Source of the DNA: Myxococcota bacterium
GTDB taxonomy: Bacteria > Myxococcota_A > UBA796 > CAJQPC01
Length of the DNA: 64,000 nt
NCBI GenBank assembly: GCA_036229005.1
Contig: JAZAMN010000043.1
Location: 32,001-96,000 of the forward strand
Direction of reading: 5' to 3'
Shown piece by piece: positions 8,557 to 41,450 of the stretch. The translations under genes and the position numbers were made by a program. The notes under the pieces were generated by a model. The model saw only the letters and a program-made list of their open reading frames with translations. It was not told the origin of the DNA and ran no database searches. Numbering within the stretch: the stretch's first letter is position 1; each line of letters starts with the position of its first letter.

Positions 8557-8861
8557 GGGGGGCATCCACCCCTGAACGCCGCTTATCGGGGGGCATCCGC
8601 CCCTGAACGCCGCTTGGCGGGGGGCATCCGCCCCTGAACGCCGCTTGTCGGGGGGCATCCCGCTCTGAACGCCCGTTTTGGCGGCGGATCCGGCCGGATT
8701 GGGGGAGCCTTGGACCTGTACCCATCCTGGGCTGACAGGATTCCAGGCACTTGGCGCGCAGGCCTCCGAAGGGCGCGGGCATTCACCCCCGGATGCCCCC
8801 GCCCGGCGTGCGTTCGCCCCCGGATGCCCCCGCCCGGCGTGCGTTCACCCCCGGATGCCCC
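8557..8861. repeat. Inverted 31-bp-period repeat element, family A (4 units + ~105-bp core + 3 inverted units)
   Basis: GGCATCC at 8561, 8592, 8623, 8654, each followed by TGAACGC; reverse-complement GGATGCC at 8791, 8822, 8853, preceded by GCRTTCR. Confidence 0.9.
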
Positions 8862-19158: not shown

Positions 19159-20637
19159 ATGCGCCCGGATCTCCTCCTGCTGGACGTCGGCGGTGTGCTC
19201 CTGCAGCCCGCCGAGCCCGTCGACGCCACCTACCTCCGCATGGGCCGCCCCCACGGGGTGGAGCAGGTCGACTTCCGCCGCGCCTTCGCCCAGGTCTCCG
19301 GCCGCCAGCTCATGGACGGCCGCCCCTACTGGCGCGCGGTGGTGCGCGAGGCCACCGGCTGCGCGGACCCCACTTACTTCGAGGCCCTCTACCAGCACTA
19401 CGCCCAGCCCCAGGCCTGGCGCGTCGCGCCGGGCGCTCTGCCCCTCATCGACACCCTCCGCGCGCAGGGCACCCCCGTCGCCCTGGTCTCCAACTGGGAC
19501 ACCCGCCTGCGCGGCACCCTCCGCGCCATGGGTCTGCTCGACCGCGTCGACGCGCTCTTCGTCTCCGGCGAGCTGGGCGTCGAGAAGCCCGATCCCCGCA
19601 TCTTCCACCTGGCCTGCCGCCGCTTCGGTGTGCCCCCCAGCCGCGCCCTGATGGTCGGCGACTCCTGGTCCAAGGACGTCCACGGCGCCATCTTCGCGGG
19701 CGTGCCCGGGCTCCACTTTGGCGCACAGGTCAGCGACTTCCGCGACCTGGCGCGTTGGCTGGAGCGCCCTCCTTGGCACGCAGACGCGGTGCTCACGCTG
19801 CCCCAGGCCCGAGCCGTCGCCGCCGGCATCCCCGAGCTCGCGGACCAGCCCGTCGCGCCGCTCGGCCAGGGCTGGGACAGCACGGTCTACTCCGTGGGGG
19901 CCCAAGCAGTTCTGCGCGCGCCCCGCCGCCCCTTGGGGGCCGTCAGCCTGCACACCGAGCTGCAGGTCCTGCGCGCCCTGGATCTCCCCGGGGTCCCGAA
20001 GCTGCTCAGGGTGACCTCGCCGGTGGAGGGGTTTCCCTACGCGGTGGCGTGCTTTGAGCGGGTCGGAGGGGTGAGTCTCGAGCGCTGGGAGGGCCCCGAT
20101 CGCCGCCTCCTGGCCCACAGCCTCGGAGAGTTCTTGAGGGCGCTGCATGGGCAGGTGGACGCGCGGGCCGGGCCCGACACTCTGGGTCGCTTGGAGCCCC
20201 AGAGACTCCAGCGATCCATCCACCAGCGAGGACAGGCTGCCGTGGACGACGGCTGGCTCTCACAGCCCCCCGTCGCGCCCCCGGTCGAGTCCGTGGAGCA
20301 CGCTACCGCTCTGGTCCACGGGGACCTCTACGCCCGGCACATCCACGTGGACGCAGCGGGCGCGCTGGTCGGGCTGGTGGACTGGGGCGATGTGCACCTG
20401 GGCCACCCCGCGGTGGACCTGGCCGGTGTGCTGGGCGTGCTCCCGCCGACCCTGCGCTCGGTGTTCCTGGACGCCTACGGCTCCGTGTCACCCGGGACCC
20501 TGGCGCTGGCGCGCCTGCGGGGCATGCACCACCAGTTGGGGGTGCTCGCCTACGCGATGGACATCGGGGATCGGCCTCTGGCGCACACAGCGCGGCTGGC
20601 GCTGGGGTGGCTGGGGGAGGCTACGACCTCTGAGTGA
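19159..20637 (+). CDS. HAD-family hydrolase fused to APH/Mph-like phosphotransferase
   Basis: HAD: LDVGGVL, VSNWD, KPDPRIF, VGDSW..D; kinase: LGQGWDS, HGDLYARH, VDWGD. Confidence 0.88.
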   Translation: MRPDLLLLDVGGVLLQPAEPVDATYLRMGRPHGVEQVDFRRAFAQVSGRQLMDGRPYWRAVVREATGCADPTYFEALYQHYAQPQAWRVAPGALPLIDTLRAQGTPVALVSNWDTRLRGTLRAMGLLDRVDALFVSGELGVEKPDPRIFHLACRRFGVPPSRALMVGDSWSKDVHGAIFAGVPGLHFGAQVSDFRDLARWLERPPWHADAVLTLPQARAVAAGIPELADQPVAPLGQGWDSTVYSVGAQAVLRAPRRPLGAVSLHTELQVLRALDLPGVPKLLRVTSPVEGFPYAVACFERVGGVSLERWEGPDRRLLAHSLGEFLRALHGQVDARAGPDTLGRLEPQRLQRSIHQRGQAAVDDGWLSQPPVAPPVESVEHATALVHGDLYARHIHVDAAGALVGLVDWGDVHLGHPAVDLAGVLGVLPPTLRSVFLDAYGSVSPGTLALARLRGMHHQLGVLAYAMDIGDRPLAHTARLALGWLGEATTSE

Positions 20638-20885
20638 GCGGGGAGGGGAGGCTACGCCCCCTGGATGAGCGATGTTCTGAGGCTACGCCCCACCAGTGAG
20701 CGCTCGGGCCACCGATCAGGCCCTGAAGCGGCCAATTTCCGGCCGATTTCCACTGTTCTGGGCCCAGATTGCCCCCAAAGCAGCCGATTCGGTCACCCGA
20801 TCGCTCACTGAGCACCCGTAGCCGCGACAGACCGCTCACTCGGACCCGGTAGCCACCCCCCTGCGCTCACTTAGCCCCGGTAGCC
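20619..20885. repeat. Inverted 31-bp-period repeat element, family B copy 1 (3 units + 99-bp core + 3 inverted units)
   Basis: GGCTAC-N9-RTGAGCG at 20619, 20650, 20681; CGCTCAC-N9-GTAGCC at 20802, 20833, 20864. Confidence 0.92.
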
Positions 20886-20903
20886 ACCCCAGAAACGCCA
20901 GAG

Positions 20904-22280
20904 TCAGCGCACAAAGCGCGCCACCACCTCGATGTGCCCGGTCTGAGGGAAGAGGTCGACGGCCTGCAGCCACTCCAGGGTCCAGCCGGCCGCCTCGAAC
21001 ACGGCGCGGTCCCGGGCCAGGGACTCGGGCTTGCAGGCCACGTAGACCAGGGTGCTCAGGCCGGAGTTCGCCAGGTACTCCGCGACCTTGGGGTGGAGGC
21101 CCGCCCGCGGCGGGTCCACGATGGCGATGTCGTCGTCGCGGAGCGCGGGCAGGTTGTCCTCGACCTTGCCGGCCTTGTACTGGATGTTGGAGCGCTCGTT
21201 GCGCTGGGCGTTGAGCCGGGCGTCTGCGACCGCCGCCTCGTTCATCTCGATCCCCAGGACCTCCTGGAAGCGGTCGCCCAGGTAGAGGCCGATCGCGCCG
21301 GTCCCGCAGTAGAGATCCAGCACGCGCCGTCCGCTGCCGGCGGCCTCGGCGACCACGTCGTAGAGCACCTCGGCGCCGGCGGTGTTGGTCTGGAAGAAGG
21401 CGGTCGCGGAGAGCTGGTAGCGGACGGGACCCAGGGCCTCGTCGATGGTGGTCTGGCCGGCCAGGACCTCGCGCAGAGGGCCGATGGCGGCGTCGGCCAC
21501 GCGCTCGTTGACGAACCAGAGCACGCCGTCGGCGGGGAGGGTGGCGGCGAGGGCGCGGAGCTCGTCTTCGATCTGCTCCACGGGCGCGTCTTGGGCTTCT
21601 GGGGGGGCTGTGTAGAGGGCGACCAGGACCTGCCCCACGCTGGAGGCCCGCACCACCAGGTGCTTGAGGAAGCCCACGTGCTCCCGTACATCCCAGGGCG
21701 CCAGCGAGGTCTGACTGTACCAGCCCTTCACCGCGGAGATCACGGCGTTCATCCGCGGGTCGGCGATCTCGCAGCGCTCCACGTCGACCACCCGGTCAAA
21801 GCGCCCGGGGGCGTGGAAGCCCAGGAAGCGCCCGTGGATGGACTTGCCGGCGGCGTTGTCGGCCTCGGTCAGGAAGCAGCGGGTGCCGAAGCTCAGCTCC
21901 ACCTTGTTGCGGTAGCCGAACGCGGCGGGGGCGCCGGCGATGGGGCGGGGGACCACGCCGGGGAACAGGCCGATGATGCGGCGCTGCTTCTCGCGGCGCT
22001 GGGCCTGCAGGTTGAGCTCCTGGAGGCTGCAGCCGCCGCAGAGGCCGAAGGCGGTGCAGGGAGGCTCCTGGTAGTCGGCGGGGCGCTCGACCATGTGGAC
22101 GCGGCGCGCGTGGATCACGCCCTGCTTGCGCTTGAAGGGGACCACGTGGACCACGGCGCCCGGGGGGGCGCTGCGGACCATGACCTCCTGGCCGTCGTGG
22201 GTGCCCACGGCGCAGCTCTTGGGACCCAGGCGGTCCAGGGTCAGGTCAAAGGGCGGGGTGTGTCGACGTCGGCGAGCCAT
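20904..22280 (-). CDS. rlmD: 23S rRNA m5U methyltransferase (RlmD/TrmA family)
   Basis: C...FGLCGGC Fe-S motif, YRNKVELSF, AFFQTN, DLYCGTG, VDPPRAG, YVAC, DLFPQTGHIE. Confidence 0.93.
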   Translation of the reverse strand: MARRRRHTPPFDLTLDRLGPKSCAVGTHDGQEVMVRSAPPGAVVHVVPFKRKQGVIHARRVHMVERPADYQEPPCTAFGLCGGCSLQELNLQAQRREKQRRIIGLFPGVVPRPIAGAPAAFGYRNKVELSFGTRCFLTEADNAAGKSIHGRFLGFHAPGRFDRVVDVERCEIADPRMNAVISAVKGWYSQTSLAPWDVREHVGFLKHLVVRASSVGQVLVALYTAPPEAQDAPVEQIEDELRALAATLPADGVLWFVNERVADAAIGPLREVLAGQTTIDEALGPVRYQLSATAFFQTNTAGAEVLYDVVAEAAGSGRRVLDLYCGTGAIGLYLGDRFQEVLGIEMNEAAVADARLNAQRNERSNIQYKAGKVEDNLPALRDDDIAIVDPPRAGLHPKVAEYLANSGLSTLVYVACKPESLARDRAVFEAAGWTLEWLQAVDLFPQTGHIEVVARFVR

Positions 22281-38810: not shown

Positions 38811-39600
38811 GAGAGTTCAGTGATTCTTTGTGGGGGCGCCGGCCCCCACACCCCCTGAGCGGGCTTCTGAGAAAGCCCGGGGAGACCGAGGGGCCGGTCT
38901 CCCGGGAGTCCGCGCCGCCGAGACGGACTTGGGGGTCCGGCTGGGCTCGGCGGCGGCGGCCTCCGAGGTGGGGGGGCCGGATTCGCCTACACATGCCGGC
39001 TGCACCTACGCTGCTCGGAGTCCGCGCCGGCGAGACGGACTTGGGGTCCGGTTGGGCTCGGCGGCGGCGGCCTTCGAGGTGGGATTCAGACCGTTGCGGC
39101 CCAGGGAGACCGAGCGGCCGGTCTGGAGGGAGTCCGCGCTGCCGAGACGGACTTGGGGGTCCGGCTGGGCTCGGGGGCGGCGGCCTCCGAGGTGGGGGCA
39201 GGGATGGCTCTGACGTGGGAGTTCAGTGTTGTTTTCTGGGGGCGCTGGCCCCCACACCCCCTGGGCGGGCCTCGTTGAGGCCCAGGGAGACCGAGCGGCC
39301 GGTCTGGTGGGAGTCGGCGCCGCCGAGACGGACGTGGGGTCCGATTGGGCTTGGCGGCGGCGGCCTCCGAGGTGGCGAGCTTGACTGGCCTCCCCAAGTC
39401 AGCTGCGCAGACGCCGCTGCTCGGAGTCCGCGCCGCCGAGACGGACGTGGTGTCCGATTGGGCTCGGGGGCGGCGGCCTCCGAGGTGGGATTCAGACCGT
39501 TGAGGCCCAGGGAGACCGAGCGGCCGGTCTGGTGGGAGTCGGCGCCGCCGAGACGGACGTGGGGGCCGGTTGGGCTCGGCGGCGGCGGCCTCCGAGGTGG
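38811..39600. repeat. Array of six ~66-bp hairpin repeats in two ~405-bp super-units
   Basis: Core GGAGTCCGCGCCGCCGAGACGGAC...GTCCG...CTCGGCGGCGGCGGCCTCCGAGGTGG at 38905, 39017, 39129, 39310, 39423, 39535. Confidence 0.9.
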
Positions 39601-39612
39601 CGAGCCTGACTA

Positions 39613-39965
39613 GCCTCCCCAAGTCGGCTGCCACCGCGGCCGCTCCCCGGAACTCCCGTCATCGGCGGTCGCCAGTCCCCGGTCCCCGGTCGCCGCCTGC
39701 GCGCGGCCGCTCCTCGGAACTCCCGTCATCGGCGGTCGCCAGTCCCCGGTCCCCGGTCGCCGCTTGTGCCCAACCGCCCCCGGCGGCCTCAAGCAGCCCC
39801 CCGACGCCTCCCCAAGTCGGCTGCCACCGCGGCCGCTCCCCGGAACTCCCGTCATCGGCGGTCGCCAGTCGCCAGTCCCCGGTCGCCGCCTGCGCGCGGC
39901 CGCTCCCCGGAACTCCCGTCATCGGCGTTCGCCTCGCCGGTCCCCGGTCGCCGCCTGCGCGCGGT
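39613..39965. repeat. Four ~66-bp repeats (second family)
   Basis: GCGGCCGCTCCCCGGAACTCCCGTCATCGGCGGTCGCC...CCCCGGTCGCCGC repeated four times as two pairs. Confidence 0.88.
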
Positions 39966-39990
39966 CGCTGCCCGAGCCCCCCAGCGACGC

Positions 39991-40278
39991 GGCTACACAG
40001 GTCGAATGAGCGGCCCCCTGTGGCTACGGGGGGCGAATGAGCGGTGCGCTGAGGCTACGCAGGCTCAGTGAGCGAATCGGTCACCGAATCAGGGCGGGAA
40101 GGGGTGATTCAGGACGAATTTCGGGCTGAACAAGCCCTTTCGGGGCCAGATCGGTGGATGGACCGCTCACCGGTGGGCCGTAGCCTCAGAACACCGCTCG
40201 CTCACACCCCGTAGCCACCCCCGGGCGCTCACTCAGACCTGGTAGCCAGCCCCAAGCGCTCATCCACGCCGGGTAGCC
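39991..40278. repeat. Inverted 31-bp-period repeat element, family B copy 2 (3 units + 89-bp core + 4 inverted units)
   Basis: GGCTAC at 39991, 40022, 40053; GTAGCC at 40180, 40211, 40242, 40273; core ends are homologous to copy 1 in opposite orientation. Confidence 0.92.
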
Positions 40279-40532: not shown

Positions 40533-41450
40533 TCAGCCCTTGGCCTCCTTCTGGGCGGCCTCCAGCGCGCTGTGCTCGTGCTCGGCGCGGATGGTGAGGG
40601 TGTTGATGGTCGACTGGATGTCGGCCAGCTTGCGGTGCAGCTCGTGCAGGTCCTGGGCCAGGGACTGGCGGCCTTCGTTCTGGGCCTTGAGCAGCTCCTC
40701 GGCCTCGGCGGCGGCCTCGTCCATGCCGTTCATGATGACGCCGATGAACAGGTTCAGGATGACCATGGTGCCGGCGAGCACGAAGCTGCAGAAGAACGCG
40801 GCGCTCAGCAGGGGCTGGGCCTGGGGGGCGGTGCACAGGGCTTCGTTGCCGTCGTAGCCGTAGTTGTCGCAGCCGTACATGTTGATGTACATGATGTCGG
40901 TCCAGTCCTCCAGGGTGACGACCCGGAAGAGGCTGAGCATGGACATCTGCAGGTTCTCGAAGTGGATGGGGTCGTTCTCCGAGAACATGAAGGTCGCGGT
41001 GACCGCGTACAGGTAGAACAGCAGACCCAGCAGCATGCTCACGTAGACCATCGACGGGATGGACTTGAGCAGCGCGCCGACCAGGATCTGCAGCTTGGGC
41101 AGGGCGGTGACTAGCTTGAGCACACGCAGCACGCGCAGCAGGCGGAGCACGGTGACGAAGGAGCCGCCGAAGGGCAGCAGGCAGAGCGCGACGATCAGGA
41201 AGTCGAACACGTTCCAGGGGTCCAGGAAGTAGCGCCAGGGCTTGGAGCCCTCCGCGCCCATCTTCACGACGATCTCGATGATGAAGATGCCCAGGATGAT
41301 CTGGTTCATCCAGTGGAGCTGGGTCTCCCAGGCGGTGGCCAGGGAGTGGTAGGTCTCCACGCCGACCACCACGCCAGCCAGCAGGATGACGGCGGTGATG
41401 AAGTTCTGGAACGCGGAGCTGTCCGCCAGCTTCTTGAATTTCTCGGTCAC
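40533..41450 (-). CDS. Voltage-gated cation channel (BacNav/AnclNav-like)
   Basis: DPWNVFDF, S4 LRLLRVLRVLK, filter TLEDWTD, LNLFIGVIM, C-terminal coiled coil. Confidence 0.95.
   Translation of the reverse strand: MTEKFKKLADSSAFQNFITAVILLAGVVVGVETYHSLATAWETQLHWMNQIILGIFIIEIVVKMGAEGSKPWRYFLDPWNVFDFLIVALCLLPFGGSFVTVLRLLRVLRVLKLVTALPKLQILVGALLKSIPSMVYVSMLLGLLFYLYAVTATFMFSENDPIHFENLQMSMLSLFRVVTLEDWTDIMYINMYGCDNYGYDGNEALCTAPQAQPLLSAAFFCSFVLAGTMVILNLFIGVIMNGMDEAAAEAEELLKAQNEGRQSLAQDLHELHRKLADIQSTINTLTIRAEHEHSALEAAQKEAKG

Follow-up and report, generated by a model that had tools for sequence, protein, structure and literature searches.

The 64,000-nucleotide stretch of DNA analysed here (the window) carries two copies of a repeat element, F1, which recurs throughout its genome and is one of five repeat families, each built from inverted arrays of 31-bp units and each paired with a gene for a different HUH/Y1 protein. 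We consider it probable that F1 is a REP/BIME-like non-autonomous element and that a dedicated RAYT-like HUH/Y1 transposase copies it to the ends of genes. The helix-turn-helix (HTH) tail of this enzyme is predicted to bind the boxes of the array as duplex DNA.

An earlier analysis based on the letters of the window (the sequence-only reading) had described two copies of this element, the first consisting of three units with a 31-bp period, a core and three inverted units, and had placed that copy between convergent genes, the left-hand one of which encodes a HAD-APH fusion. The unit positions of both copies were recovered (Table 1), and ORF positions confirm the convergent arrangement and show that the last codons and the stop codon of the fusion gene (TGA, 20635-20637) come from the left arm. 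The motif GGCTAC-N9-RTGAGCG has 12 exact matches in the window, compared with 0.01 expected. In copy 1 the innermost unit of the left arm is of the CCCCACCR type and that of the right arm is of the CTCR type, and the core has an A/T periodicity of 10.25-10.5 bp. A sibling element belonging to family F4, absent from the earlier description, also sits between convergent genes.

Table 1. Coordinates of the elements and neighbouring genes in the window, the five repeat families of the genome (G000) with their partner genes on contigs (C), and the contig ends that carry IS110 ends.
Feature	Location	Strand	Details
F1 element copy 1, whole	20619..20885	.	3 units + 99-bp core + 3 inverted units
Copy 1 left arm	20619..20702	+	units at 20619, 20650, 20681 (GGCTAC-N9-RTGAGCG, period 31)
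Copy 1 core	20703..20801	.	99 bp; CCACCGAT at 20709-20716, inverted partner near right end
Copy 1 right arm	20802..20885	-	units at 20802, 20833, 20864
F1 element copy 2	39991..40278	.	3 + units at 39991, 40022, 40053; 89-bp core 40075-40163; 4 - units at 40164, 40195 (one mismatch), 40226, 40257
Sibling F4 element	8560..8860	.	GGGCAT-N9-AACGCCC; 4 + 3 units of 31 bp, 102-bp centre
HAD hydrolase-APH phosphotransferase fusion gene	19159..20637	+	host neighbour of copy 1
RlmD/TrmA-type RNA (uracil-5) methyltransferase gene	20904..22280	-	ends 18 bp from copy 1
Ion-transport (Ion_trans) gene	40533..41450	-	neighbour of copy 2
Family F1, GGCTAC/RTGAGCG	45 loci		partner on C27 (G000:C27:37209-37985)
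Family F2, AGCTAC/RTGCGCG	14 loci		partner on C52
Family F3, CGCAAC/RTGCACC	13 loci		partner on C21
Family F4, GGGCAT/AACGCCC	20 loci		partner on C24
Family F5, CGCAAC/CGYAAGT	31 loci		partner on C32
IS110 left ends	contig ends C22, C29, C58, C71 of G000		
IS110 right ends	contig ends C15, C27, C29, C48, C50 of G000		

Some features of the surroundings are recorded in their own right. The HAD-APH fusion is rare, with only three other full-length fusions among 120 matches listed; in one other genome (G005) the gene convergent with that for the methyltransferase is a lone HAD gene, with no array. Directly to the left of copy 2 (window positions 38813-39974) there are units of 112-113 bp within a 406-bp duplication, followed by a 67-bp unit in five copies, which is also present elsewhere in the genome. 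At 20891-20897, immediately beyond the right arm of copy 1, three metagenome runs have five substitutions in 7 bp. The genome also contains several further short repeat families, and clusters of ~120-bp repeats at ~236-bp spacing on contigs C73, C57, C45, C49 and C4 (for example C73:91578-93700).

Going by the nearest atlas cluster, by named homologues and by marine metagenome runs, the host probably belongs to the Myxococcota and lives in the sea; its genome, of 6.4 Mb and 70% GC, is 94% complete. A scan of this genome for the F1 motif found 219 exact units with the 9-nt spacer, whereas each of the other spacer lengths (5-13 nt) gave 0-6. When units with up to two mismatches were grouped, 44 two-armed elements were obtained (45 in a weight-matrix census). 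The earlier suggestions of a dispersed family, and of selection acting on motif and spacing, are thus borne out. The view in the sequence-only reading that the motifs are almost invariant while the 9-mers diverge needs correction in the second part: the motifs are conserved, but the 9-mers follow a biased consensus (for example G-S-S-S-T-C-T-G-A preceding box B) and are not free spacers, and the core is constrained as well. Each arm contains one to five units at the 31-bp period, and conservation peaks at the innermost unit and decays outwards. The core is 88, 89 or 99 bp long in 41 of the 44 elements (n = 14, 14 and 13). Its ends are constrained, reading CCACCGAT...ATCGGTGG with CCACCGAT at both ends in inverted orientation, and identity between the cores of different copies is 44-46%. 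A significant A/T period of 10.25-10.5 bp was found in 41/41 cores, compared with 2/100 random windows. The elements also have a polarity, since 32 of 41 pair one ACC-type with one CTC-type innermost unit. Leading-strand bias was considered as the source of this asymmetry and rejected, the skew of the elements being unrelated to that of their flanks (rho 0.06). The proteins flanking F1 have no common function (79 scanned of 104 neighbours listed), and a shared regulon was ruled out because the flanking genes are unrelated in function.

A motif-free scan identified 188 period-31 arrays in the genome, every one of them intergenic, and none at periods 29, 32, 34 or 35. The 188 arrays fall into five families at 123 loci, 121 of which are two-armed. 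There are exactly five HUH/Y1 paralogues in the genome, 49-69% identical to each other, and the family profile yields no sixth. Each paralogue is within ~230 bp of an array from a different family; all five genes are outside the window, and a RAYT-like partner of this kind was not among the possibilities considered in the sequence-only reading. Four of the five genes have an array on one side only. The evidence that pairs F1 with the C27 protein is a one-armed remnant of two units at a contig end, where an IS110 element has cut it. At 69% identity the F1 and F2 proteins form a sister pair, and the motif RGCTAC-N9-RTGMGCG is common to both families; the F3 and F5 proteins are likewise sisters, and have CGCAAC in common.

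The partner proteins are 258 residues long. The C27 protein contains the motifs LMPNHVHLQ and RYIHLNPCR, and residues H43, H45, Y99, N103 and P104 are invariant across 107 homologues. The Pfam Y1_Tnp model (PF01797) had zero matches among the proteins of the genome, and the NCBIfam RAYT model NF047646 had five, at 31-37 bits, under its cut-off of 80. The closest solved relative is TnpA-REP of E. coli (4ER8), with a profile E of 1.2e-7 and a fold E of 3.9e-5. The predicted structure (pLDDT 96.9) has a helical C-terminal tail, the helices of which align weakly to DnaA domain IV (3pvp; rmsd 1.9 over 63 columns, E 0.48); Pfam HTH matches in the tail are all under cut-off, and the putative recognition helix is at about residues 218-226. 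The proteins match TnpA-Y1 subclass 2.1 ('TIRYT') with a predicted C-terminal HTH, and the arrays, which are putatively mobile, were likely spread by the adjoining transposase-like gene.

No exact F1 array was found in 40 relatives, in assembled genome contigs or in viral contigs. Plasmid records gave only partial matches, in three records, and 21 genomes of the family had only 0-5 scattered single motif matches each. Across these collections the F1 motif is species-specific. The same layout with other motifs is dispersed in each of four other genomes tested. Of 151 genomes of the order, 57 encode a homologous protein, as do 28 of 301 genomes of a phylum sample. Within the order we analysed 69 loci that encode a homologue (29 came from the search directly and 40 from the top of its ~150 listed matches), using a detector that requires two matching units per arm. 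Inverted arrays of period 31 were found at 23 of these loci and of period 32 at three, with none at other periods between 18 and 44; the other 46 have no period-31 array. Control loci had inverted period-31 arrays in 0 of 47 cases, and distant homologues from the same class or phylum had inverted arrays, at any period of 18-44, in 0 of 13. Motifs taken from three homologue loci had 12, 19 and 28 copies in their own genomes and none in four others each. Array motifs turn over even between species of one genus: in G002, a sister of the F1 and F2 proteins adjoins GGCTAC-N9-RTGCAGC arrays, which occur at five loci there. In DNA sampled at a distance from the partner genes, 400 kb from G008 and G021, which have 9 and 12 paralogues, contained 8 arrays, and 400 kb from G001 and G002, which have the gene, contained zero. 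Array-bearing genes are not significantly clustered on a quick tree (154 of 500 shuffles as low). G005, which has no detected partner gene, contains at L247:18113-18343 an AT-rich array in which the palindromic AAACGATCGTT is repeated ~8 times, every 31-32 bp; the ORF downstream of it resembles Fic genes by eye.

The preferred reading, of an element copied by its own transposase, can be laid out as a series of steps. The proteins would align along one helical face of each arm, their HTH tails binding the boxes as duplex DNA, and the bendable periodic core would let the two arms meet. The HUH/Tyr site would nick one strand near the outer ends, at a predicted distance of up to ~7 bp outside the outermost GGCTAC, and join it to a new site, much as E. 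coli TnpA-REP does with single-stranded BIMEs. Unit numbers may shift through slippage or rolling-circle-like addition, insertions would persist mainly downstream of genes, and F1 units have become an IS110 target. Expression of the partner genes is likely to be under host control through a sigma54-type promoter. A more specific version is offered tentatively: a sigma54-regulated HUH branch may have switched to duplex reading, its HTH polymerising on three-turn boxes, looping the core into a synapse and thereby both spreading and maintaining its own families of phased sites, with protein and motif co-diversified into dozens of orthogonal pairs across one Myxococcota order. If true, this would be a new mode of Y1 transposition, and the arrays would possibly be chromosome-bending sites between convergent genes.

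The argument for duplex recognition comes from the spacing of the arms. Each 31-bp unit spans three helical turns, and the arms are spaced in whole turns, in line with the helical phasing suggested from the window. Among 34 distinct classes of centre length the best period is 10.4 bp, and 0 of 2000 random sets were as strong. The F1, F2, F3 and most F5 classes are at 4-6 modulo 10.4. Five classes are half a turn off (52, 62, 104 and 115 in F5, 52 in F3), and in the F5 cases inspected the arms end on a half unit. Since the classes differ by ~10 and ~21 modulo 31, addition of whole units is no explanation. Arrays in G046 have arm distances of 111 or 121, with steps as in F1, and centre lengths in G002 are 26 and 57 bp when put on the F1 scale. 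The spacing tracks the helical pitch of DNA, a sign that enzymes of this class may read double-stranded DNA and not hairpins.

It is nevertheless conceivable, if unlikely, that the same enzyme reads a single-stranded foldback hairpin, as RAYTs read REPs, with the 10.4-bp steps a by-product of slippage in a degenerate core repeat. The F1 cores do contain a degenerate repeating pattern of 10-11 bp, and an F1 strand is predicted to fold as a long imperfect hairpin (z -5.4), so that a foldback substrate is possible. All characterised Y1 transposases work on single strands, according to the sections of PMC8266576 and PMC3333891 used here, and GTAG is present in F1, F2 and several relatives. However, complementarity of the variable arm positions is lower within an element (0.428) than between elements (0.499), and all 2000 of 2000 permutations gave a higher value. 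This speaks against selection for a perfect hairpin. The loop of a hairpin needs no whole turns, and G002 and other families have short centres, of 16, 26-27, 36-37 and 47-48 bp, whose phase is unchanged. Among 31 arrays from other genomes only 5 have GTAG/CTAC in their consensus, and GTAG was rejected on this count as a universal guide.

A further alternative, touched on in the sequence-only reading as a chromosome-organising site, concerns the present role of the arrays more than their origin, and is compatible with the preferred reading. They may now be mainly chromosome-architecture sites, at which the partner protein, gyrase or a nucleoid protein bends or relaxes DNA between convergent genes, like BIME-1 or RIB elements with an IHF site, their spread being ancient or incidental. 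We think it rather improbable as the main explanation. In its favour, motif and phase have been retained while the cores have diverged to ~45%. With a purpose-made gene caller, 21 of 39 F1 elements with two neighbours are between convergent, 17 between co-directional and one between divergent genes, whereas 384 background gaps of 250-800 bp comprise 77, 198 and 109 respectively. IHF and gyrase bind REPs (PMC3333891, in part).

The regulation of the partner genes can also be counted in favour of an architectural role. A -24/-12 motif, which we take to be sigma54-like, is found upstream of 40 of 72 partner and homologue genes compared with 57 of 1938 controls, mostly 27-29 nt before the start. 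Further upstream, TGTC-N8-GACA occurs at 20 of the 72 genes compared with 19 of the 1938 controls, arranged as for a putative enhancer-binding protein site. Both are present at all five paralogues (for example L077:6986-7100), and the genome contains a sigma54 gene. On the other side, the motifs turn over among species of one genus, the catalytic residues are invariant, and four genomes without a detected gene gave 1 array-like match in 635 kb, an AT-rich single palindrome of other build. In addition, in two metagenome runs from a single study the contigs lack 36 bp of copy 1 (20684-20719), a loss that would throw its arms out of phase, so that phase is not indispensable at every site. This deletion also counts against the preferred reading, as does the result that four metagenome runs showed no empty allele of copy 1; together with the high divergence of the F1 cores, the latter suggests that the spread may be old. 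Three genomes of the same genus have another gene directly after the methyltransferase, and they and G005 are too diverged at this locus for the ends of the element to be read at base level.

F1 elements often lie within 0-30 bp downstream of a gene, and seven copies, copy 1 among them, supply a stop codon, at unit positions 17-19. This location, along with the stable foldback prediction, would suit an RNA-level role, as bidirectional terminators or as stabilisers of mRNA formed by foldback in 3' untranslated regions. Such a role is very unlikely to be the explanation, because it does not account for the 31-bp period, the helical centre lengths, the non-complementarity of the arms or the pairing with nuclease genes, and Rfam models gave zero matches in the window.

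In DDE transposons with multi-site ends, repeated binding sites are present in inverted arms, and the repeated sites of F1 resemble them. The sequence-only reading had proposed a non-autonomous element with ends of the IS21 or Tn7 type, and of this proposal the non-autonomous element stands and the ends do not. Derivation of F1 as a MITE from a DDE transposon of the IS21, Tn7 or Mu type is largely refuted and has a very low probability: conservation is highest at the inner units, there is no terminal TG..CA-type end and no terminal repeat outside the arrays, and a DDE integrase is only one of 79 flanking proteins, 402 bp away. There is no target-site duplication in the 121 elements of all families (mean shared flank 3.80, compared with 3.73 for shuffled). 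Similarity between related copies mostly stops 0-7 bp beyond the outermost unit, with exceptions at ~60 and ~525 bp.

A TIGR-like dual-spacer guide-RNA array, also raised in the sequence-only reading on the resemblance of two short repeats alternating with 9-nt segments, has a negligible probability: the genome (94% complete) has no Nop domain and its sole match to a Tas model is an IS110 transposase under cut-off, the unit is 31 and not 36 nt, the repeats are 6-7 and not 8-12 nt (TIGR dimensions from part of PMC12045711), and the 9-mers are biased and alike within an arm, in arrays that are inverted and scattered.

F1 units are also the target of a multi-copy IS110 element (for example L076:16540-16673), which inserts between CGCT and CAC. 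Four of four left and three of five right contig-end junctions are in F1 units. The element itself is unassembled; a C-terminal fragment matches NF033542 and an assembled IS110. Its left end is predicted to fold (z -2.9) with an internal loop, the strands of which match the sequence of the left target and the complementary sequence of the right one; such an arrangement of loops is that of bridge RNAs (described in part of PMC11208160). Two other assembled IS110-family transposases (L064:640-1887 and L065) have ends that recur at other contig ends.

For subclass 2.1 we know of no described substrate or biochemistry. Here there are five enzymes and five defined substrates in one genome, with many more pairs in relatives, so that direct tests of specificity, of what the HTH does and of whether helical phase is needed are possible. 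If duplex recognition proves true, it would widen the known repertoire of Y1 transposases and offer a naturally occurring code between recognition helices and DNA boxes.

Subclass 2.1 of PMC6006769, which is equated there with the TIRYTs of PMC3733652 and with RAYT Group 1 (PMC5581495), is the second-largest group of Y1 HUH proteins, present in 14.9% of species; this and the following statements on the subclass come from parts of these sources. TIRtrons consist of single long terminal inverted repeats around the gene, often GGGGWSAS (PMC3733652; PMC6006769), and those parts of PMC3733652, PMC6006769 and PMC5581495 that bear on the question report no REP-like sequence near subclass 2.1 genes. 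The partner proteins resemble TIRYTs in their NHVH and YIHLNP motifs and perhaps in the C-terminal DnaA-like HTH, a tentative prediction here; their length is ~258 residues compared with a median of 238. Genomes also have several divergent paralogues, each with a repeat of its own, and some TIR families are dispersed. The difference from TIRtrons is that the repeat is here a self-contained, two-armed array of 31-bp direct repeats with helical spacing, on one side of four of the five genes. None of the genes is bracketed by long terminal inverted repeats; that on C24 has a complete array on each side.

The likeness to REPs, BIMEs or REPINs and RAYTs is one of genomic organisation. In those parts of PMC3333891 and PMC8266576 that treat the subject, TnpA-REP uses its HUH/Tyr site to nick and rejoin BIMEs in single-stranded form, and a role in their spread and amplification is proposed for it; BIME-1 has a long linker with a site for a bending protein. 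As in these systems (same sources), F1 comprises many dispersed copies that lie outside genes and downstream of them, as inverted pairs about a linker and with an adjoining Y1 gene; there is also one enzyme per repeat family, no target duplication, and targeting by IS110. F1 differs in that its units are direct repeats of two non-complementary boxes and not palindromic hairpins with a 5' GTAG foot, as REPs are described there, and in having a period and a linker tied to the helical pitch. The protein differs from RAYTs in having a predicted HTH tail and lacking the WQ motif of the REP-binding subclasses (4ER8 alignment). The IS110 element resembles the IS621/ISPpu10 type in its insertion at a CT core in a repeat and its left-end target-binding loop (PMC11208160, in part). 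It differs in its relation to the repeat, being a parasite of F1 and not its origin, with two of the five right junctions at CTCACTC outside F1.

We found no description of 31-bp phased arrays with Y1 proteins in the literature covered; the TIR lists in the figures and supplements of PMC3733652 and PMC6006769 are outside that scope and may bear on novelty. On this comparison the system works like REP/BIMEs with their RAYTs and its enzyme is of subclass 2.1, yet its repeats are neither the hairpins of REPs nor the terminal repeats of TIRtrons.
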